Source of the DNA: Okamejei kenojei
Lineage: Eukaryota
Assembly (NCBI GenBank): GCA_035221665.1
Contig: CM069161.1
Location: 15,314,001 to 15,378,000 of the forward strand
Direction of reading: 5' to 3'
DNA: 64,000 nt
Shown here: positions 3,446 through 58,795 of the stretch, piece by piece
Layout of the letters: each line of letters starts with the position of its first letter
Numbering within the stretch: position 1 is the stretch's first letter
Program-made: the position numbers and the translations under genes
The notes under the pieces: generated by a model
What the model was told of the DNA's origin: nothing
The model's database searches: none
What the model saw: the letters and a program-made list of their open reading frames with translations, nothing else

Positions 3446-5690
3446 CTAATCCCACTTTCTGCAGTCTATTTACAGTAGTTCTGGGGATCACATCTACCAT
3501 TCGTTTCTCGCCTCATGTCTAACCCTGTGAGTTCAGCAGTTCTCCTTTCTCCATAATGACACATCATCCATTTCTTGAGGTTTGATAATTGATTATTAAG
3601 ACTATGAAACAAATGACACCGAATCACTTCTGGAGTGCCAAATTTGCATATTTGTACTTTAGCCCCTGCAGGCAGTTTCAATTTTGTTAATCAGCAATTA
3701 GGATCAAAATTGTACATTGAAACGTGAGTGTGAAAGAGGTGAATCTTTTGCAGCACAGAACCAACCATGCCCATTCTTATCCTTTCACAACAGAACCCTG
3801 AGCATTCTACAAGGAATCTTTCATGAACTAACAAAGAGTAAATCATCCAGCAGACCCATAATGTCAATAGGATTACAGCAAATCAAGGTCCAGTTATATT
3901 TGATAAAATTGATTCAAGGTAAGAATGTTGTGATGCCTACAATTCTCTCAAATTGTTTCATTTCAGAGAATCAATAAATCTACTGTATAAATCTCTGTGC
4001 AAAATGATTTTCTATTTACTGTCTCACTAGGAACGGGCTCTATTAATAGCACTGACCATCCTTCTATAATGGCAGATATAAGCATCAGCCTAACCAATGA
4101 AACTGCTCTTTTAAAAACAAATATTTTGAAATTGTTCTTCACTTGGTCAATGACACACATTGACCTGAACTTTGGAGGCAAATGATGACGCATTGTCACT
4201 AACATAACAAGTTTAGCGCTCGGGATAGGTTTTGAAGCAATGGTGTTTTTTCACTACTGGTGATTCATAAGTGAAGTTGCATCGGAAGCTATGTTTCTTG
4301 AAGCTACACATTGCTACAATTCCATTAGTGGCTGTGAATTGTATATTAATAAGCTTCCCACTTTTCATATTTAAAAAATTGACACTTGTTTCAATACTTC
4401 CCAGACAGCTGCTTAGTGTGGAAAGCCTATTGACCAAAGTCTTCCACAAACAGGGTCTGGCTCTAAATGTAACCAAATTCCATCATTTATCAACATTGTA
4501 AATCTTGGGAGCCCACTAATTCCATTCCAGTCTACAAATCTGTTCCAGAATTTACAAAAACTGTGGATGGAATCTGTGTCTGAAAGTTGGCTGCTGAACA
4601 TCAACAGAGAGATATTGCTCAGAAGTACTACACTCAACTTATTGACATCCAACACCACAGTGGTACAGTACATAGTAGCAACTTCAAGATGGTGCCAACC
4701 CATGGCTATTCGAGTTGTACATTATTCCCGTCTTTCATCATGAAGCAGAGACATTCAGAGAAGTACAGAGGATTAAGGAACTCAAAATATGTCTCCATTC
4801 ATCGTGACTTAAACATTGACTTGCATCGTGATGTAAAGTTACACAAGATTGTTCTCCACCGGCTTGCATAACTTTCAATGATGCAACTTCAACCTGATGA
4901 AGTCGGAAAAGCTGAATGGTGTTGCTAACTGAACAAGCAAACCCAATGTTCAATTATCTGCATGAACACACGTGGCCAAAATGCCTCCTTCTGTAATGCA
5001 AATGTCAATGATTCCAATTTGTGATAAGCCTCGTGCACAACAACCCCTTGACCTTCCATGATGCTCGTGGGATGCTTGATCAATATCCGTACAAACCATC
5101 GATGCTTGATTACTCAGCGAGCAAACGTAAAGTAACCATTTCTGTAGTCTGACTTTAAGATCACCCCCAACAGTGCATTCAACAGCTCACTGTTCAATAA
5201 ACAAACATGCAAAAGGTATCTCAGTGATACATAATCTCAAATGGACTTAAATGTCCAAGAATAAATTTCTTGCGGCCTTTCTACATCAAAAAAGGATAGT
5301 CCAGAATGAAGGAAAACTGGTAAACAGACTAATTTAAGCAGACTAATCATCAAGATATATCCAGATTCTGGAATCTGAAGCAAAAATACAAACTGCGAAG
5401 GAACAGTGGGTCAAACAACATCTGTGGAGGTAAAGGGAAGAAACGCCAACTATAAATCTACCTCCACAGATGCTGCTTGACCCATTAAGTTCCTCCAGCA
5501 GTTTTCTCTTAGTTATTATTTACTATCTTGCCTCGTGTATAGTTGGCTGCTGGCAATACACTTGTGCTGTGCATTGTTCATCCTGTGTGCAGAGTAATGT
5601 ATATTAGCAAGAGGTACCACACGAGTGTTAAATTGAACGTCAACAAGTCGTGTTATTTCTTTTGGATTATTTATGTGGTGATATCATTAC

Positions 5691-6052
5691 CTAGGAGTTA
5701 GGTTAGGGGGTCCACAACAGTTCAATGATGGTAGAAGGAGTTTTGCTGGATTTTGGATATTGTCATTTCCACCACTGTACATGCTGTCTTCTTTATTATG
5801 CGGGGGGCTTTCGCCCCTCCTGCACTTCCCTGGAGATCGACTGCCATGTCGCATTGCCGAGTAATGTTTTAGTTCCTCCCCCAGCAAACTGCCAAGTGAT
5901 CCTCGGCGGATCGGACTGTTCAATCCAGGCAGAGTGAGCTTCCTGTGAGTCTTTGTTGCTGGTGAGAGGTGAGAGTATTCATTTGGTTCATCCTCAGTTT
6001 CCAAAATGGAGGAAAGTTTCTTTGTGGAATTGCCATCGCCGTCCAGTTGATT
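5691..6052 (-). CDS. KCNH4: KCNH4 exon 13 (C-terminal), 362 nt
   Basis: [18 protein letters not shown]...[16 protein letters not shown]...[17 protein letters not shown](R); acceptor tttcag, donor gtaat. Confidence 0.88.
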
Positions 6053-9000
6053 CTGAAAATAATGCATTTGTTCCATTAGCCTGTGCATTTTATCTTCGTG
6101 AAATCTATAAAGAACCCGATTCTTACATTTTTGAAGCATTTTCCCACCAGTTCCAGTTTCCCACTAATGGGTTTGCATTAGTCTGTCATCTAAAGAAAGC
6201 TACGAACACTCATGAATTCAAAGGTTCTTCCGTGAATTTGGCATCTCCAGTATGAAGCACTGCTCATATATGCCATCTCCATCAGACTGTGTTCAATCCT
6301 GACCTCTGGGTCAGTCTGTATGGAGTCTCATATCCTACCTCTGACTGTGTGGCTTTCTTCTGAGTGCTTCAGTTTCCTTCCACAAATTCAAAAGATGAGT
6401 TGGTGAATTATTTGGCTGCAGATTATCTCTAAGATAAGTGGTTGATAGGTGAATTGGGGATTTAGTTAGCATCTGAGCGAGAATAGAGAATAGTTGTGGG
6501 CTATTAAGCGGGGTATGATATTGATGGGATTTCTCCGAGAGCTGGTACAGACACAATAGCTTAAGTGGCTGCCTCATATATTGCTCGAAAAAATTAACAT
6601 AATGTTCCGTTTTTGAATGTACGAAAAAGTCTATATCTTGATATCACGTGAACTATTCTGTTAGGGCAGGCAAGGATTAGTTATTAAAGCAACTTTGATC
6701 ATTTTCTTTCCTCCTCACTTCCATCAAGAGTGAGGAACAGTCCATTGGTTCTTGCTGTCCACTATTGCTTCAGAAAGTAGCTGTTCTTCAGATGTAGCCT
6801 CAAACAAGTTATGCAAGCAAATTATTTGAATGTCATCTCTCTGCTCTCTTCAACTACCTTCCACATATCTGCCTCCATTATCTCTTGCTGGGCAACATTC
6901 CTGTGAGATGCATTGGGAAGTTTTTGTTATTTTGAATGGTTCTGTATGAATTAATTAGTCATTGAATTAGAATGGAACCCGACCTGTTTGATTTCTGAAG
7001 TTTCCCAACTGGGGCCAGGTTCTTCTGGATAAGAATTGTTCTTCTGCTTTCCAAACACTATAATCCTGTTCCAGTGTGGGTACTTTACCTTTTGAGTTTA
7101 TAGATGCAGTGCAGAAAAAGGCCTTCAGCCCATCAAGTCCCCACCGATCAGCCATCCCCGCACACTAACACTATCCTTCACGCACACCGGACATTTTATC
7201 ATTTCACCAAGCCAATTAGCCATCTTTTGGAGTGGGAGGAAACCGGAGCTCCCGGAGAAAACCCACACAGGTCACGGGGAGAATGTACAAACTCCATTCA
7301 GACAGCACCAATAGTCGGGATTGGACCCAAGTCTCCGGCGCTGTAAGGCAGCAACTCATCCGCTGAGCCACCGTGACATCTCTTAGATGTCAGAATAAAG
7401 GTGAGAATGAATTAACTAGTGCAAATTACTAACCCCATTTAGAAACTACATAAAAAGTAGGTATTCATTGTCTGGGGATAGGATAACCTGGGTAACAACA
7501 GTACCAAAAAGCCACAGGTATTTTTCTAGGGCTTTCCTTTCAAGTTTCTCCTGTTTCCAGGAACTTTGTGTGTTTTTTCAGGAAGGTGAAACTTCTGGGG
7601 AGGTCTGGGCTTGTTTCACATCTGTTCAAAAGACATGTTAACTTTTCTAAGTTTAATAACCTCAGAGTAATAAGCTGATGCAGAAATGCAGGATACATCA
7701 CCCTTCGCTAAATGCACACTAATGCAGTCAAGTAAATTAATCAGGTCAAGAAAGAAAGGTCTCAACCCAAAAATGTCCCAATCCTTCTATCCAGTGTTGC
7801 TGCCTGTCCCGCTGAGTTACTCAAGCATTGTGTGTCTACCTTCGGTTTAAATTAGCATCTGCAGTTCCTTCCTACACAAGTAAATTAATCATATTGATAA
7901 GACGTATAAGGCTTCAACAGTCACAAATCAGGAGGTGTAAAGCTGGTGGGGTCACATATTGCAAATATTTAGTGCAGGTAGGAACTGCAGATGCTGGTTT
8001 AAACCGAAGATAGACACACAATTCTGAAGAAGGATCTCGACCCGAAGCGTCACCCATTCCTTCTCTCCAGTAATGCTGCCTGTCCTGCTGAGTTACTCCA
8101 GCATTTTGCGTCTATCTTCGTACCAAATATCCAGGTTGTTTGGGTGACTGGATAAATAGCACACAAATATGTATGTGTCTTATTTTTTTAATTTTTGGCT
8201 ATAAGTGTATAAAAATAGTTATTTTCAGAGTGGAATGATGTTTTCAGGTCAAATTGCAGCATTACAGAAATGTAATTTAATTTATGTTGCATCAACGATT
8301 TGTGTCATTTCCTTTGTAATTCTCTTTTATTGTACTAGCCAGGAAATTAGGTCAGATTGTTCTGATATGTGACAATAATAAACCTAAAACGTAACCTAAA
8401 CCTAAACCTTGCCTGGCTGGATCCAATAGCAGAACAGTCAGTCTCACAGCAATAGTTCCCAAATGAATGAAATGTCACAGAATGTCATCTACATTGACTC
8501 TCATTTCAGTTATTTGCTCGTTGATGCCACAATGTATAATGCACTACATTCAGAATAAAATAACCAACATACCTGAGAGAGTCTTGGGGATTTGGCGCAC
8601 TTTGCGATTCCCTGTGAAAACAACAGATGGAACGTTACTGGACTGGCAGCTCCTCATATCTTGCTTGGGTACCTTGCAACCCAACAGTGTAAATATTAAA
8701 GTCTCCAATTTCAAGCAACACCCCCAAACCCTCGCCCCCACCCCTGTGGCCATGCATACATTTCTCTCACTATCGCCCACCACCAGTCTTTTTCCCTCCT
8801 CCATGCACTCATCTCCCGTCCCCATGTCCCATATTTCCCTTTTACAAACCCTCATTCCCCACCCCCTTGTCTCCTCCACCGATATCCCATTCTGACTTTA
8901 CTTTTCGCTTGTTTTATCTACATATCCAACACTCCTTTCTCTCCTCTAGCCTTTGTTACTTATTTTGACCGTCTGCCAATCACTCTTACCTCTACCCCAT

Positions 9001-12000
9001 GCCAGGCTTTGCCTCGCCCCCACCTTTATGTTCCAGCTTTCTCCCCCATATTCCATTTTTGAAGATGGGTCCTGACCTCTAAATGTTATCTGTCACTTCC
9101 CTCCACAGAGTTTCTTTTTTGCTCAAGATTCCAGATGTGCAATGTCTTGTGTCTCCACAGTACTGTTCTATGAGGCCTTGGAATAAATTTGACCTCAGAA
9201 CACAGATGCAGGATTTTTTAAATTAATTGATGAAATCTAGGATTCGCGGACCAAGCCAACATTTATTGCCCACCCATAGATGACATACATGGGGAAGGTG
9301 ATGGTGGGATACTTTTTTGAACTGCAGCTGTCCTGGTTAAGGTACTTTCACAGTGTTGTTAGTGGGTGAGTACTAAGACATTAACCTCGCAACAATGAAG
9401 GACAGACACACATTTTCAAGCCACGATGATGTGTAACTTGGAGAGATATTTACATTTGGTGATGGAGGTGTCACATTTGTTCTCTTAGTAGGAGTGGTTA
9501 CCAGGTTGGGGAAGCTTCATAGAAGCCTTGAGTTGCTGCACTGCACCAAGCTGTAGCCATATTGTGCTGGTGGTGGAGGGAGTGAATGCTTAAAACATAC
9601 AAACATAAGAACAAGAAGAAAGACTAGACCATTCTGTCTCTCAGGTCTGCTCCACCATTCAATAACATTATAGCTAACCTGCCCTAGTCCAATATCCATT
9701 GATGCTTCGACCCAGAAATCCATTGATCTTTGTTTTATGGTGGTGAATTGGGTGTCAGTTTAGCAGGCGGCTTTATCCTGATCAGTTGTTGCAGTTCTAG
9801 GGTGTTAATGATCTCCATACATCCAGACCAAATGAAGTATGATCTATTATTTCTCATATTTTCCTACAACATAGTCAGAGGCCACTTGACCACTTGTCAG
9901 AGCAATCCAGTCAATTCCATCTCCCCATTTTTACCCTGTATGTTTTTCACACAATAACCTAGGACCTGTACCTGGTAGGGAGAGGAAAGGCTTTGGAGAG
10001 TCAGGAGATGAAATGTCACCTGTTCACATACCCCAGAGATGCTACCTGGCCCGCTGAGTTACTCCAGCACTTTGTGTCTATTTGTGCAAAGCAGCTTCTG
10101 CAGTTCCTTATTACTCTATGATTAACTACTTTCTTTATTAGGAAGATGGGAGAGCACCAAACTGTGCAAACTATAAGCATGGGACTGTGCAGGGAGACAG
10201 TGATCAGAACTATCACTGAACACCATCCCATGGAAACATTATTCCAAATTTTCATTAAACATTTTAATGTTCACTATTTTAAGGCTTATCAGCACTGTGG
10301 TGTGAAAAAGATCTGGAGTTTAATTTCAATTAACAACTTTGTTAAAATAGGGCATGTGTTAATTTATCACAAACATAGAGAGAACATTTAAACCTCAAAT
10401 ACTTCTTACCAGCTGTTGAGAAGGAATTTATAAATGTTTGTACAGGATTTGATGTGACTGCATTTTATAACAAGAACAGCTGCTTCTCCATCAACACAAT
10501 ATCTAACTGGGGAGGTCATCACCCCATCCTGTGGCTGATTCATGTAATCTTCTCAAGTGCAACAAGCTGTGAGCTCTTATCGACAAGACCAAAGGAATTA
10601 TGATTGTTGGTGACTATATAAAATCCCATCAGAAGAAATGATGTGTATCGAGCACCGAACAATGTTCTGCATCTAATCATCCAAAATCTTCTAACCTTCA
10701 TTGCAAAATCCTGAATACTTCAGATGAACATATTTGTAGAGTCCAATGTGATACTCAGTACTGTGCAGCAGGTTTGTGATGCCTCAACTTTCATCCTCCT
10801 GTAAACTTGTACAGGCCACCACTGTGACAGTTACAAACCAATACCAATACTATTGTCTTAGTGTCAGAGACCTTGAGTCCTTGGGTGGGGTCTAGGTGGA
10901 CTTTGAATGTTCTCCCTGTGACTGCATGGATTTCCTCCAGGTACTTCAGTTTCCTCCCACATCTCAAAGATGTGGGAAGGCAGGTTTATTGCCCCTAGCA
11001 TGTAGGTGAGTGGTAGAATCAGGGAAGTGATGAAAATGAGCGGAGCATATAGGATTGGTGTTTGGTACGGACTGTGGGTATATCCATGCTTTGTGCTTCT
11101 ATGACTCGAACATGTGGATATCATGTGCAATGCCAGGATTTATTATTCATCCTCATTTTGCCTTTGACTGAAGAGGTTGTTAAGAATGAATTACATTAAA
11201 GGGGCCGAATATACATGCAGACCAAACCAAATAAAGAGACCATATTTCCTTTCCTGAAGGGCATTAGTAAATGAAATGGGATTTAAAACAACAATCCAAT
11301 AATGTTATGGATACTGTTTAATTTCCCATTTACTTAACATCTTTTATTTACCTTTCCCAACTAGCATCATGGGGGTTGAACTCATGTATTTGGATTAATA
11401 GTTCAGAACTCTGGCTACTTGTAAAGTAACGCAACTGTTATACTTTGGTATCTTGGTAATGTTAGTATTCCAGACATTGAGACAGTACTGTAATTCAGTG
11501 GAGAGACTGGGAACTGTAGATTATGTTAAATCTGCCCTAAATGTCTCTGCTTCCAAGGGGCACAACTCCAGATTCTCTTGCCTACCTTTGTAACTGAATC
11601 CTTCATCCCTGGAATCAATTTAGTAAATGTGTTCTGCACCCTCCTGAGCAACTTTATAGCCTTGCTAAAGTACAATGACTAGAAACATCTGAATTTATCA
11701 GTTGTAGAAGTGATCATATTCTTGGAAGACAATTACATGAACGTAGAATTGTATGGACAGCTGAGAAAGCACAAGGACACTTGGGTAGTTCAATGAATTT
11801 ATTCTCAGAATTGAGAAATCCTTTAAACTATTTGTCTGCAAAATTTGTTTTGATCACAAATTAAGATGCCCAATGTATCACATTCAGTGTAATTCCTGGA
11901 AGAGAAATATTTTCAAAGGTATTATCTTACCTGTGCTTCACATCCTTCTTCAAGGTTGAAGGTCAGGTCACGGTGGATATTAGACACAAACTTGCTTGAA

Positions 12001-15000
12001 TATTCAGGATAGAGCTCCAACACTTCAAATAAGCCTCTCAGATTGATGTATTGCAGATCGCAATAAGTCAATGCTTTCACATCAGCATTTGTTTTACTCA
12101 CTTGGCCCTTCGTTGAAAGATCTGCACCAATCAAGTCCCCTTTGCCTGCAAGGGAAAGCAATTCAGAAAATCTTCAAGTCCCTTAGACAGCAATTCATTT
12201 TAGACCCAAATCCTTTTGGAAGAGGCCAACTGAGGAAAGTAATATTGACCAGAGGTTGACTTGGAGTGTGCAGTGATCAAAAACAGGACCAGGAATGCGT
12301 TTCCTTTGTGAACCAGAGTTACATTACAGAATGATTTACGATTGGGTGAGATGTAGTGTGGGAGAAATCACACATGGAGCAAAGATAATGCAAAGGTTCC
12401 TTTCTGTCAAAAAGTCGATGGTTGTAAATAAAGTCTGGTGCCCAATTGTCGTCAAAGAAATTGAGAACTGGATATGAACTATAACAATTGTTATCTATAT
12501 TAATTTTTCAATTTCAATCAAACTTCAATGGTCATTCATCCTCATCTAAATATTTAGATTAAGTAGCACAATGAAGCTATATCCCTTGAACACCTACACA
12601 ATGCACAGGACCAATGATCCCCCATTGTGATCGAATTCCAGTTAAGGTCTTGCTATTAGAAAGCTACTGAGCAGTCGCCTGCCTCTTCCACACAGTGAAG
12701 GAGGTAGAATGCAAACATAAGACACAGCAGGATTGTGGGCAGAGTTGCTTGAACCTGATCCTCATTAGTTAGTGCATGATTGAATGTCTAACTGAGTGAA
12801 CATTTTTGTCTGAACATGTACTTTTTAATGTATTAATTCAAAGGATGTGGATATCACTAGCCAAGCTGGAATTGAATGTAATTGAACATGGAATTTTACA
12901 GAACAATCCAGCATCTTAGTAAACGGACAGATACACGCACAGACAAACAGACAGACAGATATATTTTTGGACTTTAAGGGAGTCGGAGATAGTGGGGACT
13001 GGCACGTGATAAAGATATTTAACAGCACCGTAAATATTTTTTTGAATGCTATAAAATCACTCAAGCTTATCAGGTGTTTCTAAATAAGACACAAAGTGCT
13101 GGAGTAACTCAGCTGGACAGACTCTCTGGTGAACATGGAGATGTGATATTTTAGGTCGGGCCCAGATTGAAACATCATGTATCTACGTTCTCCAGCGATG
13201 CTGCCTGACCCCCTAAGTTACTCCAGCACGTTGTGTCCTTTTTGGTTACCCAGCATCTGCAGTTCCTTGTGTCTAGACGTTTCTGAATCATCGGACCTTC
13301 TTCAGAGAGACCCTATTGTTGAGAAGAATCCAGATCCCATTTATAATTCACTGCTCAGGACCAATGATCTCTTGCTCATTGAAAAATGACATTGAAAGAT
13401 GAAAGGCAAAAATTAGCCAGTTTAATAATTGAATTTGAATTGGAGAAGGGAATTGTCTACTAGTTCACGAAAAATTGCATGATGTTCTCACTTTGCTGCG
13501 CATATTACATAAGCAAGGCAGTGAAAGAACTCATTTCCTACTTGCGTTATATAAACTTGTAGCTTAGCAACTGCAACGTGGGTTATCACTGCAAGAACAT
13601 AATGCATAAACAAAATAAACTAATTGGTGCTTTGGCAAAAATTTAATCTACTTCATGACCATTGTCATTCAAATTAAGATGGGAATATTTTAAATCGAGG
13701 AGGGTGCACTTTGTATCTGATTATCTAGAAAAATAAATCATCAGAATTGGAAACGAACATCAAAAGAGAATAATCTGGAACATTCTACTTAGGTGTGTAT
13801 CCTAAATGTGATGTTTGTTGAAAATGTGATTTTTCAAGCAGACTTGAATTCTATGGTTAAAAATAGGAATTTTTCTCACTTCAAAATTGTCAGCTTGGCC
13901 AAGTTTGTAGCATTACACTACGAGAATATTGCCAGGACTTGAAGGCCTGAGGTATAGGGAGAATGTCAGGCAAGCTTGGACATTATTTCTTGGAGCACTG
14001 GCGGCAATGATTTTATAGGGTGTATGAGATCATGAGGGGAATAGATAGCGTGAATGTACAGTCTTTTACCCAGAGTAGGGGAATCAAGAACCAGTGGACA
14101 TGGGTTTAAGGTGAGAGGGGCAGATTTAATAGGAACCTATGGGGCAACCTTCACACGGAGGGTGATAGGTATATGGAACAAGCTGACAGAGGAGGTAGTT
14201 GAGGCTAGTACCACTATAATAACATTTAAAAGACATTTAGACAGGTACATGATGCAATTAAGAATACTTGAGTTCAACAAACTAACTGAGTCAAAAAAAT
14301 TGGGCGTAAATACATTTAAGGCTGAGATTAAGTAAACAGACAGACAGATATATGTTTGGACTTTTAGGGAGTCAGAGATAGTGGGCACTGGGCTATAAAA
14401 TGGCACATGATCAATCATGATTTTATCGAATGGGTCAAGGGACCATATTATGTCCTTTTTTAGTTTCCTATGTTCTTAGCCTTAGCTGTTGACATTCAAG
14501 GCTCTGGAATTGCCATCCTAAAATATGTCTTCCTGCTGACTCTCTAACCCCCTTTTAAAAACGCTGCCCTTAAAACCTGCCCCTTTGACCAACCACATCC
14601 AACTAAAGTCAAAATATAAACCGTAACGTGAAAAGTCAAGCAAAGCTCAGACATTGTGAGACCTTACCAAGAATTGCCAACACCACGTTGTCCTTCAAAA
14701 CTTCCATGGAGCCTGAGCACACAAAGTAGTTTGCTTGCAAGGCGTCGCCCTGTCTGATGAGGTACTCTCCTGGGGCGCAGAAAGAGGTTTTGATGTGGAG
14801 AGACAATGACCTCAAGCATCCACGACTGGCCGATATAAAGAGAGGTAACTGCAGAATCTCCTTGTGTAGGTGCATGGCAATGTCGGCACGGAGCTCATCT
14901 GGGAAATCCCGTAAAAGCTGCAGCGAATAAAGTGACGTTTAGACCATAATTTTCCAGATGTATTTTTGACAAAACTAAATGGACATTCACTGTGATGAAA

Positions 15001-18000: not shown

Positions 18001-21000
18001 GTCATGTCATTAACTAGATACTTTTCAATCACTGCAATGAGCCAAAAGGAAAGTCAGCAGTGTATATATTCTCTCTTCTGCCTTTGTTTTTCACTTTTTT
18101 TTTTTCCGATTTGTCGATATTACATGGCTACACTTTGTCGTGGCAGCAGAATTGGAGTTGTGGAGTATGAAGCATCTTACTGCGGTGTCTGAGCCTTCAT
18201 TCATGTGGGACTTGTGTGATGGAACTATCTAGCCTTTACCATAGTTGCTTATATATATATATATATTTTTTTAGCAAACATGGCCGGACTCAATGAATTA
18301 CCCCCAATAAGCATAGTGCAGATTGAAAATATCTTCTCTGCGTCTGTGTTTGCAGAAACATTTCCGAAGCCAACGCTGGTTAGGCTGCTCAAGGTGAAGT
18401 AGAGGGCAGCAATGTAGGCACTTCGAACGGTAGGGCCACCCAACGAGTTATTAGTGTATGGAGTCTCCAAACGTTTACCAAGCTCGTTTAACCAACCTGG
18501 TGGAGAAAAACAATCAGAGGTCAGGAATTTATGTTTCAGACTATCTGAAAATTGGGCACACCAACACATATATATATATTCATATTGAAATCTGTTGGGT
18601 TCAGATACACTCAAAAACTGAAATAAATGCAACAATCTGTTTATTTCATCTTAAGTTTGATCAGAAATGAGAAACCTCCAATTATAATCTCCAACCTCTA
18701 TTATCCCCTCCCCACCTGGTTCCACCTATCGCCTCAATCATCTATCCCACACACATCATGTTTCTTCACAATCTTTCCTCTTCCCTCTCAGACAGAGTCT
18801 GAAACATTGCGTTGCACCTCTTGCTGCCACAGTTGATACTTGACCTGCTAAGTTTTTCCAGCATTCGTTTTTTTTTGTTTACCTGCATCTATACTAACAG
18901 CTGTAAGTGTAATAAATCAGAAAGTAGCAGATAGAATCGCTGCGGGTAAGAACTAAGATGGGCCACAAGACATTGGTGGAGTTTATATTCTAGTTATGCT
19001 GCAGTTAGATTGACCTCCATGTGTTCCCAAGGTCAATGAAAGGTCAAGGTCAACAAGGTTCTTAGCAAGAACCTCAGAGGTCAACAAGACCAAAAACATC
19101 TGTCCTATATTAAAACAAAACCTGTGACACTGAAGGCGACCCGAAACGTCACCTTTTCCTTTTCTCCAGAGATGCCGTCTGATCCGCTGAGTTACTCCAG
19201 CTTTTTGTGACACAAAGGCTTGTTTGCATGACACTTTACTTGACACAATAGAAAGTGAAATCCACATTTTGTTTGGAGTTAATGACATTGGCTGATAAAT
19301 CTACACATGAATATTGAATTATTATTCATCACCAGTGTCCCAGAGGATGATTGCACCTTCACTCCAGTCTGACTGAACCTGGTGCCGCTTTGTGAAATTG
19401 TTGATATCCTACCAGAAAGAAGGTTGATCCAAGCGCCAGGTTAGGGTTCTTCTGAGCCACAGCATGGCACTACCAAGGCTTTCAACAACAAACTAACTCT
19501 TCCAGTGATCACATATTTCAAATTAATACATAAATGTTGGTGGGGAAGGTATGTACAATTAGGCCCGGGTGTTCCTTGCAACAATGCAAGTTCCAGTAAC
19601 CTTCAACAGCCCATTAAACTATGTTAATTTTCATTAAAGCTGATTTAAGAGCATGAAATAAATTTGCTGAGACATTAACACTGGAGGTAATCTTGGAAAA
19701 CTTGGAATAAATAATTCATTTATGTTACATGACACTGCATTTCTGAGCGAATACCACTGAAAGCATCAGATTAATAGAATACCCATACATTCTGAAGTGC
19801 CCTAAGGAGAATAAACTGGATGTAATATTGAAGAAGGTAAAACTAAACATTAACAGTGAGCACTGGATAGTGGCATCAAGATCTTCGATGGGTAAATATT
19901 TAGGCAGGTTAAGTTCAAGGATATACCTATACGATTCAAAGCTTGGCCGCGACTTACCAATATCCCAGGTTTGTGGATCATTCATTGCCATCTCCCTCCT
20001 GCCAATGACGTACCAGATGCAGGCCATCCAATGAGCGAGCAGCGCAAACATTGACATGAGAAGTGTTAGGACCATGGCACTGTACTGAGAATAGCGGTCA
20101 AGCTTTTGCAACAACCGCAGCAGCCGCAACAGACGCACTGTCTTCAACAAGTGAACCAGAGAGGTCTGGAAAACAAACCAGAGCAGCCGATGTTTACTTT
20201 TGGATGACTTTTCAATTGGCCTCGTAATTCGCGTTGAGTAATTAAATGATCCGATCATTAAAATGACAAACATTGATGCTTGAAAAATATAACAAGAAGG
20301 AGCGGGAAGAATTTCTTGGTCCATCACATTTGGAGAGTAGATCTGTTAGCGGCATTTCTTTGAGCCATCTTCCTGCACCCTACCCGACTCGCACTCATTT
20401 CTCCCTTTCCCCCTCGCCTTCCACCTGCATTTCTTCCTCTGGCTTCACAATTTGCTCATCTTCTCTCTGTAACCACCAGCTCGCTTTGGGGAAAATTACG
20501 GATGGAAGATAAAGGCAGGTCTTGTGAGCAATTTCTACCTCTTGTGAATGAATAGTAAAAGGCCCCGGTAAGCCCAGAGTCTGCGCCTCAGCCACCAATA
20601 CTCCCTAAAGCGATGATCCTTGGACATCTTGTCCTGGTGAACTCAAAACCAGTATTTTGGCTGAGGAAATCATCCAATAGAATCCACCATCCTCTTCTCT
20701 TGTCGAGCTTCCAGGACAATCCATGCAGGTAATTGGTGAGCAAAGATATTTTGTGCAGGAACCTTACTGCAAGATAGAGGAGACAACTAAAGGCCCGTCC
20801 CATGGTAACATGTGGTGGCCCATCCCTCACAACACCAGGATCAAGGTAGAACTTTGCACTAGTGACACTTGGTGTTTGCATATCCAAGGTCTATGCTCAT
20901 CTTGATGCAGCCACATCAGGATGGGAACCTTAGTGGGTACAGTTTCCACTTTCCTCTGCAGATCCGTCTGCCAGGTCTCTTGGGACACAATCCATTTTTG

Positions 21001-24000
21001 ATCTCAACTTCCCAACTTTTCCCAAACGTTATCCAGCAATTACCTGTTTCCACATTAAATATCACTGATCACCTTTGCCTCAATCTCTGAATCATTACAA
21101 GTTGTCCCAAAAAGAAACTCTGCCCTCTATAGATATCCTACCAGGGCAATGTGATAAAGCAGAATCTATTTTCAGACCCACCCTGAGAAAGCATCCAGAT
21201 CGTTATTTATTCATATTTGCTGTCGTACCAGGCAGGCATTTGCCAAGTAGCAGCAGGCCTGAGAGAATTTGGAAAAACAACACTCTCACTCTCTTTAGAT
21301 TGTGAGTAGATTGTTATGGAATCATTACACTGAAACCTAGTTAATTATATGCATGTCAGCATAACAGATGTATAACAGTTATTTCCATCGTCTAATTGAA
21401 ACAATCCAATTGGGTATTTACTACAGAATAGTTCATAAGGTCCAAACCAAAGCAGATTTGAGTGAAGAATCCACTTGTTTTAGGAGAATCATGACACCAT
21501 CCCATGTTCTCACCTGTCCCCCACCAGTTGCTGCTTCAGAGGTCTGTGCCCATGTCAATGTTTCCATTCCTTCAATCAGATATCTGCTCCCACCACTCTA
21601 CCCAAGGGGCCCACATATCTGTCAGACAATGCAGCTTCTTTCATCTATGATTGTGGTAGGCCTCTCTTCCTCATCCTGTCTGGCATTATGACGCAGTTGC
21701 TGCTCCGTCTTCTCTCCAGCACCTCCCTTGTTTCTAGCTGACTGGGATTGCTCTTGTTTGGTCCCACTCTTCTTTATTGAACTGTATTTGCAATAATTTA
21801 TTTTCCACTGCTAACTCTGGAATCCCACAAGGGTATTTTTTTACTCCCTTCCATTTCCCATCTACATGTTATTCCTTGGTTGCATCATTCGAATCCATGG
21901 ATATTTTAAATGGATGTGATGCTTCTCAGCTCCAACACAGCTCCAGCTCTCCGGCACAATCTGCAGCCTTGTATTTGTCTATGCCACAGTCTATACCACA
22001 ACCACTGCCACCACTTCCAAACCAGTATTCTATCTAAGGCTACACAAGACCATTCATGGTGATCGTATTGGGAATGACACAGCTGAGGTTTGGAATATAT
22101 ATCCACTCCAGCACAAGATTGCCCACTTCCACCTGCGAAAATGTGCTCACCATTTTCAAAATTCATCTGCTCTCTGATATCCACATCCTTGCCTTTGTCT
22201 GTGTATGACTCTTCCATCTCAGTCCTGGTTAACCTCCCATCATCCACCCTACATAAACAGCTCACTTAACACTGTGCTATCTTAACTTGGTCTAAGTCTT
22301 ACCATTGATTATAGCTTTGCATGTTGACCTGCACTGGCTTCCACACAGTTAATGCCTCGGATTTAACATCTTATTCGTTGTCTTCAAATCTCTCCAAGTA
22401 TTTCCATTCTTATTTCTATAATCTCGTCCCACTGTAAAACCCCCAATCTCCATACTCACTGACCATTAGCCTTGATCTACATTTCTTTTGATGTCTTGTT
22501 TTCACACCTTACCCTTCCTTATCTCTGTCTCCCTCCCCCTGACTCTCAGTCTGAAGAAGGGTATTAATCCAAAATGTCACCCATTCCTTCTATCCAGAGA
22601 TGCTGCCTGTCCCCCTGAGTTACTCTGCGGCTCTCCACAGATGCTGCCTGACCCACTGAGTTACTCCAGCACTCCGTATTTGCTATATTCTATGCCCTGA
22701 CCTATGAAGGCAAGCGCGTTATTTGCTTTCTTCACCACCCTATCTACTAGTGATGCCAATTTTAGGGAACTATGGACTTGTACCGCAAGGTCCCCCTGTT
22801 CTTCAACACTCCTTAACGCCCTACGATTTACTTTAATGTCCTCCCTTCCCGAAATACATCATCCCGCACTTATCAGAATTAATTTCCATCTGCCGACGCT
22901 CTACCCAACTTTTACTCATCCTCATTTAGCTCTCTTCTCCCCCCCCCCCCACAACATAAATATAAACAATCATGCCTTTACTAAAGTTGTTATAAAAATG
23001 GATACAAATTATATAAATTATTCTGCATCTTATCCATTCAGAAAAACACAGACCTGTGGATCCAGGTAAAAGAGAAAATTATTAAATGCAACTTACCACA
23101 GTAATGTTAAAGGCATAGAGTAGATCAAATGGCAATGCAGCTATTAAATCCACAATAAACCACGTGGTTCCATAATGGATGCAGATAGATCGAGCATCGT
23201 AGACTACTTGACCTGACTGACTGACAAATGTGGTCCGAAAGTTCAGGACAATATCTGTTGGATAAAGAAAGTAAAGCAAGAAGTGTTAATGAAGAAAATA
23301 ACGTGTAAACCAAGCCTTCATAATTACAAATGATTTCATGGAAGATTGCATGTAACACCAATAATCTTAAATGTACAATAAGGATGATGGCATCTGCCAT
23401 GGACATGTTATGGTGGTAGCAGTGGATCTGGGCTGCTTACTAGGCTGGATTTAATATGGCTAATGAACACCAATCCAGCCTCCCAAGTCCGCGTGTGCAG
23501 GGCTTCAATGAAAACAAGTGGGAATTTAGTTACTGTACCCTCAAATGGTCACTGTCTTGGCTAACCATCATCTTCTATGTCAGTGATATTAACCTGGGGG
23601 TCGGGACCCCCATCGGCAACGTGCTGCTGGCCTTACTGTGCATATATAGGATCCTGCAGTAGGAGCAAATGAACCTGGGCTTGCAAGCACTAGGGCAAAA
23701 CAGTGGTGCAGCTGGTAGAGCTGCTGCCTCATAGCTCCAGAGACCAGGGTTCGATCCTCGCCTCGGATGCTATGAGTGTGGAGTTTGCATGTTCTCCTTG
23801 TGACCATGCGGGTTTCCTCAGGGTGGTCCAGCTGCCTCCCACATCCCAAAGATGTGTAAATTTGTAGAATAATTGGCCCCTGTAAATTGCCCGAATATGT
23901 AGGGAGTGGATGAGAAAGTGCGATAACATAGAACGAGTGTGAATGGGTTATTGATGGTTGACATAGAGGGCCAAAGGGCCTGTTTTCATGCTATATCTCT

Positions 24001-40924: not shown

Positions 40925-41270
40925 ATTGAAGGTGGACGCAAAATGCTGGAGTAACCCAGTGGGACAGTCCTTCTTAAGGGTCTTGACCCGAAACGTCACC
41001 CGTTCCTTCTCTCCAGAGATGCTGCCTGTCCCGCTGAGTTTGTTACACTGACTTTTACAAACAGCACTTGGGCTCACATTGGATGTACCGAGTGATCCAG
41101 GAATCACAAGGCACCAGGGATACCATACTGACGAAGGGTCTGAAGAAGGGTCTCGACCTGACATGTCACCCATTCCTTCTCTCCAGAGATGCTGCCTGTC
41201 CCGCTGAGTTGCTCCAGCGTTTTGTGTCTATCTTCGGTTTAAACCAGCATCTGCAGTTCCTCCCTACACA
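40925..41270 (+). mobile_element. Tandem Penelope-derived inserts
   Basis: Two copies of the gacccgaaacgtcacc...gagatgctgcctgtcccgctgagtt motif. Confidence 0.8.
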
Positions 41271-46797: not shown

Positions 46798-47013
46798 AAA
46801 ACAAGGAACTGCAGATGTTGGTCTACCAAGAAAAGATACAAAATGCTGGAGGAATTCAGTGGGTAAGGCAGCATCCCTGGAGAACATGGAGAGGTGGCAT
46901 TTTGGGTCAGGACCCTTCTTCAGTTTGAAGAGAGGTCCAACCTGAAACATCATCTATCCTATTCTCCAGAGATGTTGCCTGAGCCGCTGAGTTACTCTTG
47001 CGCTTTTTCTCCT
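46798..47013. mobile_element. Palindromic Penelope-derived insert with 12-bp TSD
   Basis: acaccaattgtc at 46786-46797 and 47014-47025. Confidence 0.8.
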
Positions 47014-48343: not shown

Positions 48344-48741
48344 CCATCTGACAGTGCACGTAATCCAGAGCAAGAGGAGTATTGGTGCTCTGGAGACTCA
48401 AGGAACTGTAGATGCTGGAACCTTGAGCAAAACATGAAGTATTGGAGGAACAGTCTGAAAAAGGGTCTCGATCCAAAGTGTCATCTGTTCATTCCCTCCA
48501 CAGACGCTGCCTGACTGGCTGAGTTCCTCCAGCATTTTGTGTTGTGCCCATGTATGGACAGTATCATGGGTAGTGACCTCACTCTGCATTCTTGCCTCTG
48601 CTCCTGTCTCAATCCAATTCTGTTTTTTGATTGCACCTGCCTGAGGTTGAGCAAACTTCTCTTTATAACAATGCAGGATTTCAGACATTGCCCATTTGCC
48701 AGTTTTGATCTGTGAGATTGCTTCGTGATCGCCCGGAGTGA

Positions 48742-49402
48742 AGGGCCTGTCCCACTTACGCGTCCTTGGCACGCAAATTACCCGACCTCGTGGTCGCGTT
48801 GAGGCGCACGGGCATCGTATGGCCACGCGGGGCCGGTCCCACTTAGAAGCGCGGAGGGGTATGTAGTTGTGCGCGACATCGCGCGGGGCTCCGAAATATT
48901 TGTAGTGAACAAAATCTTTGCGCGCCAACGGCCTGTCGCGGAACTGGCAGCCAAAGTGGGACAGGCCCAAGACCCTGTTGCGACGCAACGTCTCGCCTTC
49001 AACAGCAGCAGAAGCGGGCAAACGATCGCCGAACTCGGCCTGGGGCTCACGGCCGTTGCAGTCCGATCCGCCCCCACTTCTACTCCCAGAGCGGGGTCAA
49101 GAAAATTGAAGATAGACACAAAAATGCGGGAGTAACTCAGCGGACGTTTCGGGTCAAGACCTTTCTTTTCAGACTGAAGAAGAGTCTTGACACGAAACGT
49201 CACCCATTGCTTCTCTCCAGAGATGCTGCCGGTCCCACTGAGTTACTCCAGCTTTGTGTCCATCTTCAAATGACGTCACGCGCTCCAGACGACTGTGTGT
49301 ACGCATGTAATCGCGCCCGACCTTCGCAGGACCATCGCGGCTCAACGCGACCACAAGGTCGCGTACGTGGCGTGCCAAGGACATGTAAGTGGGACAGGCT
49401 CT
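48742..49402. mobile_element. PIF/Harbinger-like MITE with nested Penelope palindrome (about 49105-49268)
   Basis: TIR agggcctgtcccacttac / gtaagtgggacaggctct; CpG-rich; extra internal TIR copies. Confidence 0.8.
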
Positions 49403-51255: not shown

Positions 51256-53904
51256 GTGCTCATTGACTGACCTCATTAGGGAGTGCAGCGGCAGTTTTTC
51301 ATATCTTTCAGGTAATTAGCACCCTAGCCACTATTTGGATGAGAATGGTTGAAGGGGGTGTCTTCTAAACATATACGAACTCACTCACAGAGACCTTCAG
51401 AGCTTCTTCTCAAATATGGCTTCAAAACACTTTGATGAATAAATGCTTTATTGTTGATAGAAAACAGTGAAATACATCCAAACTTCTTCCGACGTTACTG
51501 CAATCTTCATCGAACTCCAGCTTATTACTTTAAACATTAGAAAACTCCTCGTGTCTCTGTAACGCTGGCGAGATCTGGCATGTGGCCTGCATGATCCCGC
51601 ATGGTAGAGTGGTTAGCTGGAGTTCAGAAGAATGAAAAGTAATCTCACCAAAACAATAAATATTCTCTCAGGAGGATACAGTGAGAATTCTCCATTTATG
51701 GGAACATGAAGGAGCCGGGGCCATAGTTCAAGTTAAAGAGAGACCCACTCACTACTGAGGAGAGGGCTGTACGTTTGTTATTCTCTGTCCCAGTGAGCGA
51801 TGGACACTGACCCATTGAGAATGAAAAATCATAAAGGACTGCAGATGTTGGAAATATAAAAAAAAGAGAAAACATTTTAAATAGTCAATAGTTCAGGTCG
51901 CAGCTGTGAGGAGAAGAACGGCGGCAACGTTTCAGGTTGAAGATCTTCTTCAGAACCTGTTGCCACAGTTGCGGCCTGACCCGGAGAATATTGTAGCTTT
52001 TTCCTTTCTCCGTTAAGATTGAAATTGATCATTTTGGAACTACGAGAAAAGTAAAAGTTGTGGAGTCAAGCAGGAAAGCGTTGAGGCCATTGACCAGAGA
52101 GCAGCCATGATGTTACGTGACAGGGTGTCAACTGGCTCATAGATGCTTGTTATCTTTGTTGCTTCCCTTTCACTGACTACTATCCTGGTCAGTACTATCC
52201 TGAACTACTCTCTACCTCACTGGTGACCCTTGGACTAGCTGGCTTTACCTTACACTGAACGTTATTCCCTTTTCATGTATCTATGTCTCAATTGTAATCA
52301 TTTATTGTCATTCTGCTGATTGGTTAGCATGCAACAAAAGCTTTTCACTGTACCTCGGTACATGTGACAATAAACTAAACTGAACTGACAGCCTTCAAGC
52401 TCATTACCACTGAACCTGGAATCTTCCCATCACTGTTCATTGCTAAGCTCACCTCATTTTAGCCATTGTAGTTTCCTTCAGTATAGGGTTTACATCACCA
52501 CTTCAGTATGCTGCCAGGATCACAAAAGGATTGAAATGTCACACTTCTGCATTTAAGGTCTAATTAGGGTGTAGTTGTTAGTTAATTAGTGTTAGAACAA
52601 GAATTTGTTAAATTTTCTTGAAATTGTGTTTCCTGACATCGTCTTGTAAACACATTTTTTTTTTTAAATTTACGTGGTTAATGGATATCTAATGTCAGAC
52701 TTTAAGTTCACTGCTCAATGAGTTATTATATGAGAATAATTGTTGTCCTAATAAACAGCGCTCTGACCCAGATAAAGACAGCACACTGTCCACCCACACA
52801 CCTGCTAGTCTGTTTATGATCCACACAATCTGTTCACTGAATTTCTGAGATGTTTATAGCGTCTTCAATGCAATTGTAAGGGATTTGAAAAGTAGCTGAA
52901 GCTATCTTGAAAACATTGCAGCAGGTTTTTGTTTTGCCAGTACTGCATGGCTCATTGCAGAGTAGTGAAATGATCTCACATGGTAGTAAGATTCTTGCCT
53001 CCCAACCAATAAAGCCAATAGCCAGTGTGAAGTTACATAAGGGTACAGAAATTATACATCAGGGTTGTTTGTTATGCATGGTGACAATATTTATTACACC
53101 TGCCTAATCTCATGGTCCTTTATGGGTGAAGCTGGGGGGAAAGAAGGAAAATGGGAATGAATACCTCAGGATTTTCCCAAGCACCACCTTGAGGACCAGA
53201 GAGCATCCAAACCTTCTACTTCTTAGGCAGCTCCTCGGAATCTAGATCGACTGCTTCCCTTCTGGTTTTAAGGGTTCAGAGATGACCTAAGAGGCTGATG
53301 TGAGCACCACAGACTCTTCCACCAAAAAGGGCAGAAGGTGATTAACAGGGTGGATGGGTGGGTGGTTGGTTTGTGAGGAACAGCACTCCTTCCACTGTTT
53401 ATACAGGACTACTGTATGCTCCTGTTGAATGGATTTGAGGTTCTCAATACCATCCCGAATGTTCCATCTGCTCCTTGAGTCATCGTGGCAACAAAGATGC
53501 CCAGAGGTCAAAGAGGAAAATGACCGTGACCAATCACCGCTCATGGTTTTATAAACCTGTTTACGGTAATGCCTCAGCCTCCTTCGTTCAACGGAAAGAA
53601 ATCCCAGCCTACTCAGCCACTCCTTGTAACTCAAGCTCTCCAATCCTAGCACCAGCCTTGTGAATATTTTCCTGCATCCTCTTTAGCTTAATCACATCCT
53701 ATAATATGGTGACAAAACAGCCCATCCTTCTCCAGTGTCTTGTATTTCTGTAAATTGACAAGACGACTTATGTTCTCAGTGCCCTAACCAATTAAGGCAA
53801 GTAAGCTACACACATTCTTCACCATCCAGTATAACTGTATCATCACTCTCAGGGAGCGATATACCAATAGCCCTAAGTCTCCGTGTTCTAAGACACTTCC
53901 CTAA

Positions 53905-54236: not shown

Positions 54237-55484
54237 TAATGCTCTCTTTGTTATGAATGTTCCATCCTATCGTTTTCTCAATAGCTGTTTGATTGCCCAC
54301 TGCCATTCATCATCATGTGGCAGCAGAGCTGGAATCCAATCCATTGATGTTGGGAAGTCCTAGCTCTGCTGTTGCATGCTGTTCCCTTGCAGCTTCTCAT
54401 ACACGCGTGTTGCAACATCACTAGGTTCAGTTTCAGGTACGTCTAAAAGCTCTTTGGAACTTCTTTTTGAAACATGGTTGTTTCCCTAGCTTGATGGTAA
54501 TGGCAGAGCGAGGGTTAGGGTTACATTTTGTGGGGAAGGGAGTCTAATACTGGAGGGCATAGGTTTACGGTGAGGGGGAGGGGTGTGTGGAGATTTGAAG
54601 CCGACCTGTGGGTTTTTAGACAGAAGATGGTGGGTGTCTTGAATGAGCAGCTGGAGGAAGTGGTAGAGGTGGGTACTGTTACAACACTTAATAGACATTT
54701 GGATACGTTTGGAGGGATATGAGCCAAATGCAACAAATAGGCACCTTGATTCAGCCTATCTCCTTCGCTCCTTAGATGCTGCTGCACCCGCTGAGTTTCT
54801 CCAGCCTTTTGCGTACCCTTGATTAGCATGGATGTTTTGAGCTGAAGGGCCTATTTCCGTGCTGTGTGAATCTTTAATTCTATAATAGTATTCAGCCACG
54901 TGTCCCACATGATCTTCTGCAACAATCTTCTGATATCCCAAGCATCACAGAAGGCAGCCAATTTAATGTATGGCTCGGACCACTGAATAATCCAACTGAT
55001 TTGAAGACCTGAGCTCCAGAACTAGGACATCCAGCCCAACTCTTTCAGTACAATTACAACACTGGCGTCTCGCTGATGGTGCAGAAAATGATGCAAAGCA
55101 GAACAAATATAATCCACTTAATTACTGCCTTTTCTTAGCCAAGTGCAAAAGGTGAGAAAAAAATAACGTGGCAGCCGATATGGTGATGTTTTCCCCAAAG
55201 GCATGTTTAAGATTAAACTTTTTCAAGAAAATGAATGCGGAATGCATCAGTCATTTAGCCCTCATTGAGATGCTATGGTGATTCGAAGACTGCAGCTTTG
55301 GAAACACTAAGTTCACCTGTCAGATAAGAGTAAAGGCCATTAAGTCAATTAAGCCCATCCTTCATATCCTTTTGTTAACACTGCAGTGCAGAAAGTCATT
55401 CCATAGACTATCAAAGTTGTTAAAACAAAATCCAACCTAGAGGGATAGAATTGAAAACAAGGGATATTATGCTGAACTTTGTAG

Positions 55485-55770
55485 AAGAGCATCTCATATT
55501 TTGCTTGGGCAGCTTACAACCCAGCGGTATGAATATTGATTTCTCTAACTTCATGTAACCCTTGCTTTCCCTCTCTCTCCATTCCGCCCACATCCTCGTT
55601 CTCCGACTAGTTTTATTGTCCTGATTAAATTTGACCGAGTCTGTGCCTCGTTGTCAGCTTCCCCTCAGCTAACAACGAACCATTCTCCAGCGTCTGCAGT
55701 GTCATACCTTCGATTTTTCCAGCATCTGCAGTTCTTTCTTAAACATTCTACATTTCCTTATCATCGTCTG
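55485..55770 (+). mobile_element. Penelope-like element GIY-YIG tail fragment
   Basis: EHLIFCLGSLQPSGMNIDFSNFM* followed by UTR. Confidence 0.75.
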
Positions 55771-55842
55771 CTTTGATCCACCACCTAAAAGTATTCCAGG
55801 ACTTTTCCTAAAGGTAAGTCAAAGAAATATCTGGACAGCTTG

Positions 55843-56049
55843 TGTAGGAAGGAATTGCAGATGCTGGTTTAAACCGAAGATAGACACAAAAAAGCTGGAG
55901 TAACTCAGCGGGACAGGAAGCATCTCTGGAGAGTAGGAATGGGTGACGTTTTGGGTCAAGACTCTTCTTTGACCTGAAACGTCACCCATTCCATCCCTCC
56001 AGAGATGCTTCCTGTCCCGCTGAGTTACTCCAGCTTTTTGTGTCTATCT
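55843..56049. mobile_element. Palindromic Penelope-derived insert with ~15-bp TSD
   Basis: ~80-bp inverted arms; tatctggacagcttg / tatctggacaacttg flanks. Confidence 0.85.
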
Positions 56050-57030: not shown

Positions 57031-58029
57031 GATCTCGTTATACCTCTTCTTTGTTGGGAAAAGGGGAAGTACATGGAATGGGAACATCTGTAATCCCTCA
57101 CGTCACACGCTCAGAAATGGATTAGAAACGGCATCATTCATGTTCTGATTTTAATAAATCAGAATTGTTCGCCTCAAAGTAATTTCTATTTCAAAATGTA
57201 TTCTAATTTTTGTATTTGTTGTAATTCACTCTTCAGAAACAACCTTGTCTCTCTTCTCCACTACCTTCTACAACTTTTACACCATTCAGTTGTGAAAGCG
57301 TTAAATATATCTATACGAAAAGCCCCATATTACTCTGACAAAAGATTCGATCTGAAACACACCTAAAAATCATGTTTCAACTCTCAACTCCAGCAGAATA
57401 AAGTGCTTTTAGTTATTCTAATTGCAGTAAAGCCCACACAGAGGAGGTCCAAGTCTGTGCTGGGCCTTTGACCCACGGATCGTTTTTCTCACTGTGTGGA
57501 GCTGACTGAAAACATCTCTGTAACCAGCCAGCTCAACACCAACAAGAGCAACAATGAAAACCCAGCGCTAATTATGAGCCAGAAGCTTTGATAGTGCTGG
57601 AAAACAGGTCTATGGAGGGAAAGATAATTGCTGCAGTTCAGTTTGAAATTAGTCTGCTGTGATAATACTATCCTTAAAAGGGGTTGTTAGAGTGTCACTG
57701 TGATATAACGTGCAGAATTATTTTTTTATTCGTTGCATGCCCATGATAGCCTTTCACTTGATAGACTACATGGAGGCAGCTTGAAAGCGACAAATCATCT
57801 TTTGATGCCACATCGCATCTTTTAAATATAAAAGCAACTCAGGATTTTTATGGACCATGTTCATTAAAGCAAATGCCAGAATTGTACACTGATTTCAGTG
57901 AGCATACGTCGTGAATGCTGCAAGTTCATTAAAACTGGAATACTGGGACTCAAAGCATGTAACAACATTATAATGTGGGTTTAATTTCTGACTAGGGTTC
58001 CATTACATGTCCTGTGTTAATCAGCAGAC

Positions 58030-58795
58030 AGCTTCAAGTACTTCACGGGCCGACCACATTGATGCCACAGCCAAGAAGGCTCACCAACACTGGGGAGACT
58101 AAGGAAATTCAGCACGTCTCCAATGACTCTTACAAACTTCTTCAGGTGCACCAGAGAAAGCATGCCGTCGGGTTGCACTAGAACTTGGCTTGGGAACAGC
58201 TCTGCCTAAGATCGCAATAAATTGCAGAGAGTTGTGGATGTAGCGACACATCCGGATATCTCTATTCCATCACACAGAACAGACTTCCCAGTCTGAAGAA
58301 GGGTCTCGACCCGAAGCGTCACCTATTCCTTCGCTCCATAGATGCTGCCTCACCCGCTGAGTTTCTCCGGCATTTTTGTCTACCTCCCACCATTGAATGC
58401 ATCTACACCATGTTGCCTCAGAAGAGCAGCCAACATAATCGAAGGCTTATGGTAGAAGGTACAGAAGCTTGAAAGTGTGCATCACCTGACTCAGGAACAG
58501 TTTCTTCCCATCTGTTATCAGGCTTCTGAGCAATCATTCCATAAACTAAGATACTGTTCCATTCGTCACTAGTCCATGGCGGACGTTGGACTTTTAGCAC
58601 ATTGTAACGTATCAGTTCCATAGACAATGCTAAGAACTATATTCTGCACTCTGTATCTTCCGCTTTGGTCTATCTATTGTACTTGAGTTTGAACTAATTG
58701 TATGTATATATGGTACATTCCACCTGTTTAGATAGCATGGCTAACATGTTTTTTCACTGTTCTTCAATACATGTGACAATAATAAACCTAAAACT
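58030..58795 (+). mobile_element. Rex1/Babar-type LINE fragment with nested Penelope end (58288-58385)
   Basis: HIDATAKKAHQ and LTNFFRCTRES-like coding remnants; catgtgacaataa tail. Confidence 0.7.

Follow-up and report, generated by a model that had tools for sequence, protein, structure and literature searches.

Short, often hairpin-shaped insertions in a skate genome as termini of a Penelope-like element, with a recurrent inner boundary upstream of the predicted hammerhead cut site

What has scattered a short, often hairpin-shaped unit over 22 sites within 64 kb of a skate genome, and what decides where its copies end? The stretch concerned, which we call the window, comprises 64,000 nucleotides of Okamejei kenojei DNA (assembly GCA_035221665.1, contig CM069161.1, positions 15,314,001 to 15,378,000). 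An earlier note had ascribed the unit to the ribozyme-bearing terminus of a Penelope element and had offered two origins for it: extreme truncation with inversion, or a non-autonomous family resembling retrozymes or miniature inverted-repeat transposable elements (MITEs). Here we report that the unit is the hammerhead-bearing terminus, or pseudo-long terminal repeat (pLTR), of an endonuclease-positive (EN+) Penelope-like element (PLE), probably of the Neptune clade, and that its copies stop preferentially in a zone of nine nucleotides just before the catalytic core. With moderate confidence, we propose that these copies are single or inverted-pair insertions of the terminus, likely dead-end by-products, and that where they stop on the inner side is likely dictated by the start of the element's RNA, which would lie 31 bases ahead of the cut site.

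The unit, its identity and its outer ends

Positions are numbered from the predicted hammerhead cut site, +1 being the first base after GUC. The unit consists of a minimal hammerhead core (-28..-1), about 65 nt that follow it, and an optional extra 35 nt, the tail. Both blastn and nhmmer recovered it at all 22 positions listed earlier, the seed arms of the latter matching by construction, and additional pieces lie at 18815, 55685 and 13273-13310. The description of these sites as fold-back pairs holds for 12 of them (5360, 7975, 13085, 26720, 29340, 37926, 40925, 46798, 48395, 49105, 51835 and 55843), while the other ten are single-armed (7750, 9060, 10010, 19130, 22550, 33130, 40043, 41135, 54755 and 58288). 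Site 29340 is made of two inverted pairs, which brings the pairs in the window to 13. Most copies contain the terminus only and measure 100-210 bp; they had been described as lacking coding sequence, which is incorrect for two of them, since 37926 and 9060 both hold the C-terminus of a GIY-YIG endonuclease.

The Penelope origin is supported by the link to this open reading frame (ORF), and retro-type insertion by the variable target-site duplications (TSDs) described below. At 38058-38517 and 8638-9155 the GIY-YIG C-terminus runs contiguously into an untranslated region (UTR) and the hammerhead, and ORF ends occur in the window at 38058, 8638 and 55484. The plus-strand segment 38058..38186 encodes, in 43 codons, the C-terminal part of the PLE GIY-YIG endonuclease domain; the peptide is 84% identical to database protein P0001 and matches P0151 (E 3.5e-9) and P0013 (E 4.8e-10), and 8638-8751 likewise matches the C-termini of the latter two. 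Both P0151 and P0013 carry weak GIY-YIG matches, and the relatives P0154 and P0155 carry reverse transcriptase (RT) as well as GIY-YIG; among the proteins that match the ORF end, the best bears the label Leucoraja erinacea, and sharks are named for further relatives. A CX4CxxC linker in P0154 and P0155 points to Neptune without proving it: CX2-5CxxC precedes GIY-YIG in P0013, P0152, P0154 and P0155, the window pieces end short of the linker, and Nematis also has a CX2-5CxxC linker motif (PMC8557442). Pfam did not recognise the 43-aa and 53-aa ORF ends on their own, no RT pieces of P0151-P0155 were found in the window, and the match between the hammerhead frame and the read-through end of P0151 is weak (7/9, E 0.009). 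P0001 itself joins an RT piece of a long interspersed nuclear element (LINE) to a PLE endonuclease end and is likely a chimeric gene prediction, which is why a search started from it returned mostly LINE RTs, with only P0013 being useful.

In its core, the extra base before helix II, the G10.1-C11.1 pair and the palindromic helix III, the predicted hammerhead resembles the minimal type I ribozymes of metazoan PLEs (PMC4209133). Helix I comprises only two pairs flanking the core, as in D. virilis, and helix II has 4-5 bp. The core letters are intact in 6 of the 29 arms examined; the strict motif, which asks for a helix II of at least 4 pairs, has two occurrences in the window, one in each arm of 37926, and none in 200 shuffles. 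Rfam gave no matching hammerhead model and only sub-threshold microRNA and similar matches, which are due to the hairpin shape. The folding of five single arms did not exceed that of shuffled sequences (z -0.75 to 0.89), and two scans of JGI metagenome contigs gave no match. The available text of PMC4209133 makes no mention of chondrichthyans.

In canonical EN+ PLE insertions a pLTR is accompanied by an adjacent inverted, 5'-truncated copy, and one end bears a tail of 30-40 bp (PMC8557442, PMC3846280). The window shows the same anatomy: a GIY-YIG C-terminus upstream of the terminus, a minimal hammerhead in the pLTR, an inverted truncated arm, an optional tail of ~35 nt usually on one arm, and a short, variable TSD. 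A textbook example lies within a 13-bp TSD at 37922..38517, where an inverted tailed arm (37922-38057) is followed by a direct copy that holds the GIY-YIG end 38058-38186, the UTR, which is rich in pyrimidines, an intact minimal hammerhead (core from 38426, predicted cut after 38453) and a tail-less end. Mostly single minimal hammerheads, derived from truncated PLEs, have been described before, as have pairs on opposite strands at distances of 100-700 bp (PMC4209133). The element class and the anatomy of inverted copy plus tail are thus already published, and most of the picture is known. Unlike the canonical insertions as described in PMC8557442 and PMC3846280, however, the copies here are mostly the terminus alone, and their inner ends are piled up in a 9-nt zone. 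It is this sharp inner boundary that provides a new and testable clue.

The outer ends fall into two classes ~35 nt apart. Among 38 arms, with 18815 and 30421 excluded as too decayed, 16 end at +95..103 and hence carry the tail, 21 end at +43..69 and one at +7; exactly one tail is present in 9 of the 13 inverted pairs, which alone is not significant. When judged against 380 mismatched flank pairs, TSDs reached p<0.02 in 10 of the 20 insertions tested (9060, 22550 and 33130 lying outside the test), with lengths of 7-15 bp and unrelated sequences. The 11-15 bp reported earlier fits six of these, at 12-15 bp, but not the remaining four, at 7-10 bp, two of which are marginal. Junctions differ from copy to copy: the 13 inverted pairs have 12 different junctions, and the two pairs with the same junction are not each other's close relatives. 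A single common junction, proposed earlier as a test for a family, is therefore absent from the window copies. Furthermore, the arms fall into several subfamilies (best matches 77-97%), and there are five elements in which either arm finds its best match in the other, which fits independent events. ORF-end homology, arm layout and TSDs together support the first of the two origins proposed earlier, extreme truncation with inversion.

The inner boundary and a possible RNA 5' end

Twenty-one arms extend as far as -33..-25, and 16 of them end in this zone, immediately ahead of the catalytic core, against an expected fraction of 0.11 (P=8.5e-12 under constant hazard). In a simulation that dropped one arm of each symmetric hairpin and corrected for the search over positions, P was <0.0001 at a hazard of 0.013 per base, 0.0008 at 0.02 and 0.01 at 0.03, and automatic stringent alignment ends stop at the boundary in 11 of 15 cases. 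These ends abut either an antisense arm or host DNA and are therefore real, and since four single-armed copies also stop at -33..-25, folding back is not required. Three copies that keep the UTR align through the zone, one of them being the source of the reference UTR; in all, 5 of the 38 arms pass the boundary and 8 end at -24..-7. In the textbook copy the boundary at -32..-28 corresponds to 38422..38426 on the plus strand, with the A at -31 (38423) as candidate transcription start. The site resembles what we take to be an initiator motif.

The ribozyme region does mark the ends of these copies, as the earlier note supposed, but it does so by position; the end that recurs is located upstream of the cut site, at a distance of 25-33 nt, and not at the cut site itself. 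Arm ends are not enriched at the cut site (4 of 32 at +1..+9, P=0.5), and self-cleavage is therefore not a likely cause of the boundary. Ends of that kind do occur: 54755 starts at +1, and so may the right arm of 26720, for which +5 is the other possible start. The absence of enrichment is in keeping with in vitro work on an anole PLE, which does not depend on hammerhead cleavage (PMC11167929).

How could such a boundary arise? In the mechanism that we propose, transcription would start at A -31, and the RT would begin internally, on the copy of the terminus that lies close to the RNA start, running off the template after ~95 or ~135 nt. A single run-off cDNA would give a single arm. For the inverted pairs, the enzyme would nick and extend both target strands, so that a pair of inward-growing cDNAs would meet and be fused head to head through microhomology, either with a few bases trimmed or with the palindromes at -33..-25 and -20..-9 annealed. 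Copies that pass the boundary would derive from the 3' terminus of long RNAs. Ribozyme catalysis would not be needed in any of these steps, and starts at the cut site would make up at most a minor class. The protein of anole Poseidon cleaves and extends both strands, and has two internal start sites of reverse transcription, by which the tail is defined (PMC11167929). As PLE RT starts internally, it could also start on a terminus copy near the RNA 5' end. The window copies are like Poseidon in vitro in having outer ends ~35 nt apart and in giving no sign of ends set by the cut site, but that study concerned 3' ends at which RT starts, whereas we propose run-offs and inversions, probably of Neptune (PMC11167929).

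Contigs of related genomes bear on the same position. We aligned contigs from four sequencing runs (79,609, 64,416, 51,998 and 7,400 records, which are not to be read as copy numbers) to 38060-38540 at 88% likeness. Six of the 12 joints listed, out of a total of 292, connect +3, +4, +5, +6 or +7 to 38423 (A -31) through one G; they come from three organisms and involve five different partner positions. A constant right end with varying partners implies a fixed 5' end, and the extra G suggests that this end belonged to a capped RNA, such a G being the mark of capped full-length 5' ends in L1 and SVA insertions (PMC3287187, PMC11702581). A 5' loose end at 38422 (-32) was present in four of four runs (202, 155, 199 and 42 contigs), summed contig depth rises ~3-4-fold at this hammerhead 5' edge (38422), and no loose end at the cut site was found among the 24 of 1790 rows listed.

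Two further features of these contigs deserve mention. The hammerhead core alone (38422-38460) is repeated on the same strand at 37-38 nt in all four runs, which may reflect a nested insertion, a template jump or a minimal hammerhead satellite. Other joints lead from the ORF end at 38127-38138 to 38422-38426, mostly with unknown letters between, and represent either spliced or deleted copies or divergent UTRs.

We must however take into account several points that weigh against an RNA start at -31. None of the window arms that reach -31 carries a non-templated G before it, and the letters of the boundary fit a splice acceptor and a palindrome as well. The arm ends behind the 16 of 21 were set by hand, and the bin was chosen after the data had been seen. 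As for the contigs, the evidence consists of the 12 of 292 joints and 24 of 1790 loose-end rows mentioned above, and the G-joints could stem from a tandem satellite of 37-38 nt or from a subfamily that has G at -32. Loose ends and depth step are confounded by subfamilies with different UTRs (the loose-end consensus is pyrimidine-rich), and we give them little weight for this reason. Transcription of D. virilis Penelope starts ~120 nt upstream of the hammerhead, with a 46-nt exon and a 75-nt intron (PMC2377424, PMC4209133), and the in vitro data come from Poseidon, not Neptune. The full proposal is correspondingly tentative: in cartilaginous fish, capped PLE RNA may start 31 nt before the cut, which would place the ribozyme at the extreme 5' end of the RNA, the commonest product may be a strong-stop-like cDNA of ~95-135 nt, and opposite-strand pairs of these, once joined, may form the MITE-like hairpins. 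In the literature outside subscription journals, repeat databases (Repbase, Dfam) and supplements, we found no report of a fixed PLE 5' boundary or a cap-like G, nor of these elements in cartilaginous fish.

Other readings of the boundary

Could the boundary be set by structure rather than by an RNA end? The RT would then stall after copying the hammerhead fold, and the cDNAs would anneal at the -33..-25 palindrome or at helix II, the RNA itself starting further upstream. A palindrome coincides exactly with -33..-25 and forms the centre of two symmetric hairpins, helix II, which is palindromic too, occupies -20..-9, 8 arms end at -24..-7, and the 5' ends of rotifer Penelope pLTRs likewise carry palindromes (PMC3846280). 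Yet single-armed and very asymmetric copies share the stop, isolated arms fold like shuffles, and the constant extra G is left unexplained, which makes this account unlikely, if the strongest of the alternatives.

Somewhat less likely again is a short interspersed nuclear element (SINE)-like, non-autonomous unit of ~135 nt (-31..+103) that would supply both an internal promoter and an RT-start signal of its own and be amplified from short masters, the hairpins being its faulty insertions. The promoters of Penelope lie within the element (PMC2377424), a pLTR by itself is able to act in cis (PMC3846280), and the same tail variant occurs in five insertions (7752, 7975, 26720, 41135 and 55843), none of which keeps UTR. 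These are, however, only five copies; junctions are not shared, and the boundary is shared by several subfamilies, one of which includes ORF-linked copies.

Improbable, in our view, is that the boundary is a 3' splice site and the copies stem from spliced RNA. A pyrimidine tract and CAG do precede -29 in the three UTR-keeping copies, the intron of D. virilis runs up to the 5' side of helix I (PMC4209133), and the contig joints from the ORF end to 38422-38426 would fit. Against this, no common upstream exon could be recognised before -29 in the 12 window contexts of arms stopping there, introns are usually kept in PLE copies, and those joints may be divergent UTRs.

A stalled RT, a SINE-like unit and a splice site share with the RNA 5' end that we favour the consequence that the insertions are PLE-made. 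About as improbable as the splice site is the second origin of the earlier note, a retrozyme-like or MITE-like family with ends made by ribozyme cleavage or a transposase: the starts of 54755 and of the right arm of 26720 and the same-strand core repeats in contigs speak for it, but the cut site is not enriched, the window has several subfamilies and no tandem full units on the same strand, the two hammerheads of each hairpin, being on opposite strands, are unable to excise a monomer, and neither the variable TSDs nor the twelve distinct junctions of the 13 pairs fit.

As for known classes, non-LTR retrozymes are non-coding, derive from PLE pLTRs, bear hammerheads and have been reported from one chondrichthyan genome (PMC7229834; bioRxiv 10.64898/2026.07.22.740005). 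They form head-to-tail tandems with at least two same-strand hammerheads, whereas the window copies are dispersed singly or in inverted pairs, and no such head-to-tail units were found among the window matches of blastn and nhmmer. Assignment to this class is not supported, the canonical type I hammerhead with 6-bp helix I being absent and only two pairs flanking the core. The copies are like MITEs in being short, non-coding and hairpin-shaped; that class is not supported in view of TSDs of 7-15 bp with unrelated sequences, unequal arms, varied junctions and retroelement homology.

Individual copies, surroundings and significance

Among the two-armed copies, that at 5362..5509 belongs to an older subfamily, with an antisense tailed left arm, junction +6 / -8 and no significant TSD. 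A short antisense tailed arm (end near +56) joins a sense arm of -29..+69 at 7972..8120, with a marginal 7-bp TSD, and a similar arrangement (antisense to +40, tailed; sense -32..+60) is found at 48397..48545. The copy at 13087..13273 (junction -19 / -8; marginal 10-bp TSD with one mismatch) was probably inserted into the adjoining older antisense hammerhead core at 13273-13310. Further junctions are -29 / +1 (or +5) at 26719..26921, with a tailed right arm, -26 / -22 at 40928..41040, with an internally deleted left arm, -29 / about +8 in the old copy at 51832..52003, and -26 / -14 at 55841..56049, with a tailed left arm and a 15-bp TSD. At 29327..29634 a four-arm composite (junctions +35/-25 and -10/-27) lies within one perfect 12-bp TSD. 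The two symmetric hairpins centred on the -33..-25 palindrome are at 46800..47011, with a tailed left arm and a perfect 12-bp TSD, and at 49106..49267, which is tail-less and has an internally deleted left arm. The arms of 46800-47011 are only 72% alike within their perfect TSD and possibly go back to two RNA templates. Left-arm internal deletions of 35-50 nt, at 40928-40975 and 49106-49172, are expected of unstable palindromes or assembly collapse.

Single arms on the plus strand run from -25 to +103 with tail at 7744..7878 (perfect 15-bp TSD), from about -8 to +100 with tail at 10005..10114, from -28 to +59 at 19129..19209 (8-bp TSD), from -30 to +103 with tail at 41133..41270 (13-bp TSD, two mismatches), from the cleavage site (+1) at 54754..54817 (TSD of at least 8 bp) and, within an older repeat, from -31 to +66 at 58290..58385 (TSD not significant, p=0.07). 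At 22475..22690, also plus, an arm with ~75 nt of UTR is followed by a second sense piece (+12..+60) that lacks the hammerhead. Two arms are on the minus strand: 33132..33212, which extends to about -15 and adjoins another repeat, and 40043..40222, with ~85 nt of UTR. Longer plus-strand remnants are the truncated copy without hairpin at 8638..9155 (GIY-YIG C-terminus, pyrimidine-rich UTR, decayed hammerhead) and, absent from the earlier list, the GIY-YIG end and UTR of another copy at 55484..55760, which enclose a 60-nt tailed terminus piece (55688-55745). In three cases (13273-13310, 29408 and 55688) a terminus copy is found inside, or directly next to, a further PLE copy, the site being the hammerhead twice and the UTR once; this suggests self-targeting.

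Minus-strand exons with PAS and ion-transport domains span 18252-40702 and presumably belong to a gene for a potassium channel of KCNH type. Its introns hold many of the hairpins, which would form double-stranded RNA in the pre-mRNA. A GC-rich older repeat with internal repeats (48760-49340) hosts the 49105 hairpin. LINE 3' end copies (repeat families D7, D15 and D19) lie at 33210-33683, 45592-46093, 49705-49981 and 56344-57022, likely from what we take to be a common shark and ray LINE of CR1 type, and a tandem array with a period of 26 nt occupies 17414-17672.

What do these copies mean for the biology of PLEs? Both the formation of inverted pLTRs and the role of the PLE hammerhead are open questions (PMC8557442, PMC11167929), and PLE hairpins such as these are liable to mis-annotation as MITEs or microRNA precursors. 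If the capped RNA indeed starts at -31, inverted pLTRs and one-sided tails would be explained, the ribozyme would be a decapping switch and not a maker of ends, and a self-promoting, non-autonomous unit of 135 nt may have arisen. The many short copies in skate genomes, with 52,000-80,000 contigs aligned per whole-genome run, are a natural record of the points at which the RT stopped, and this record points toward a capped RNA end and away from self-cleavage.

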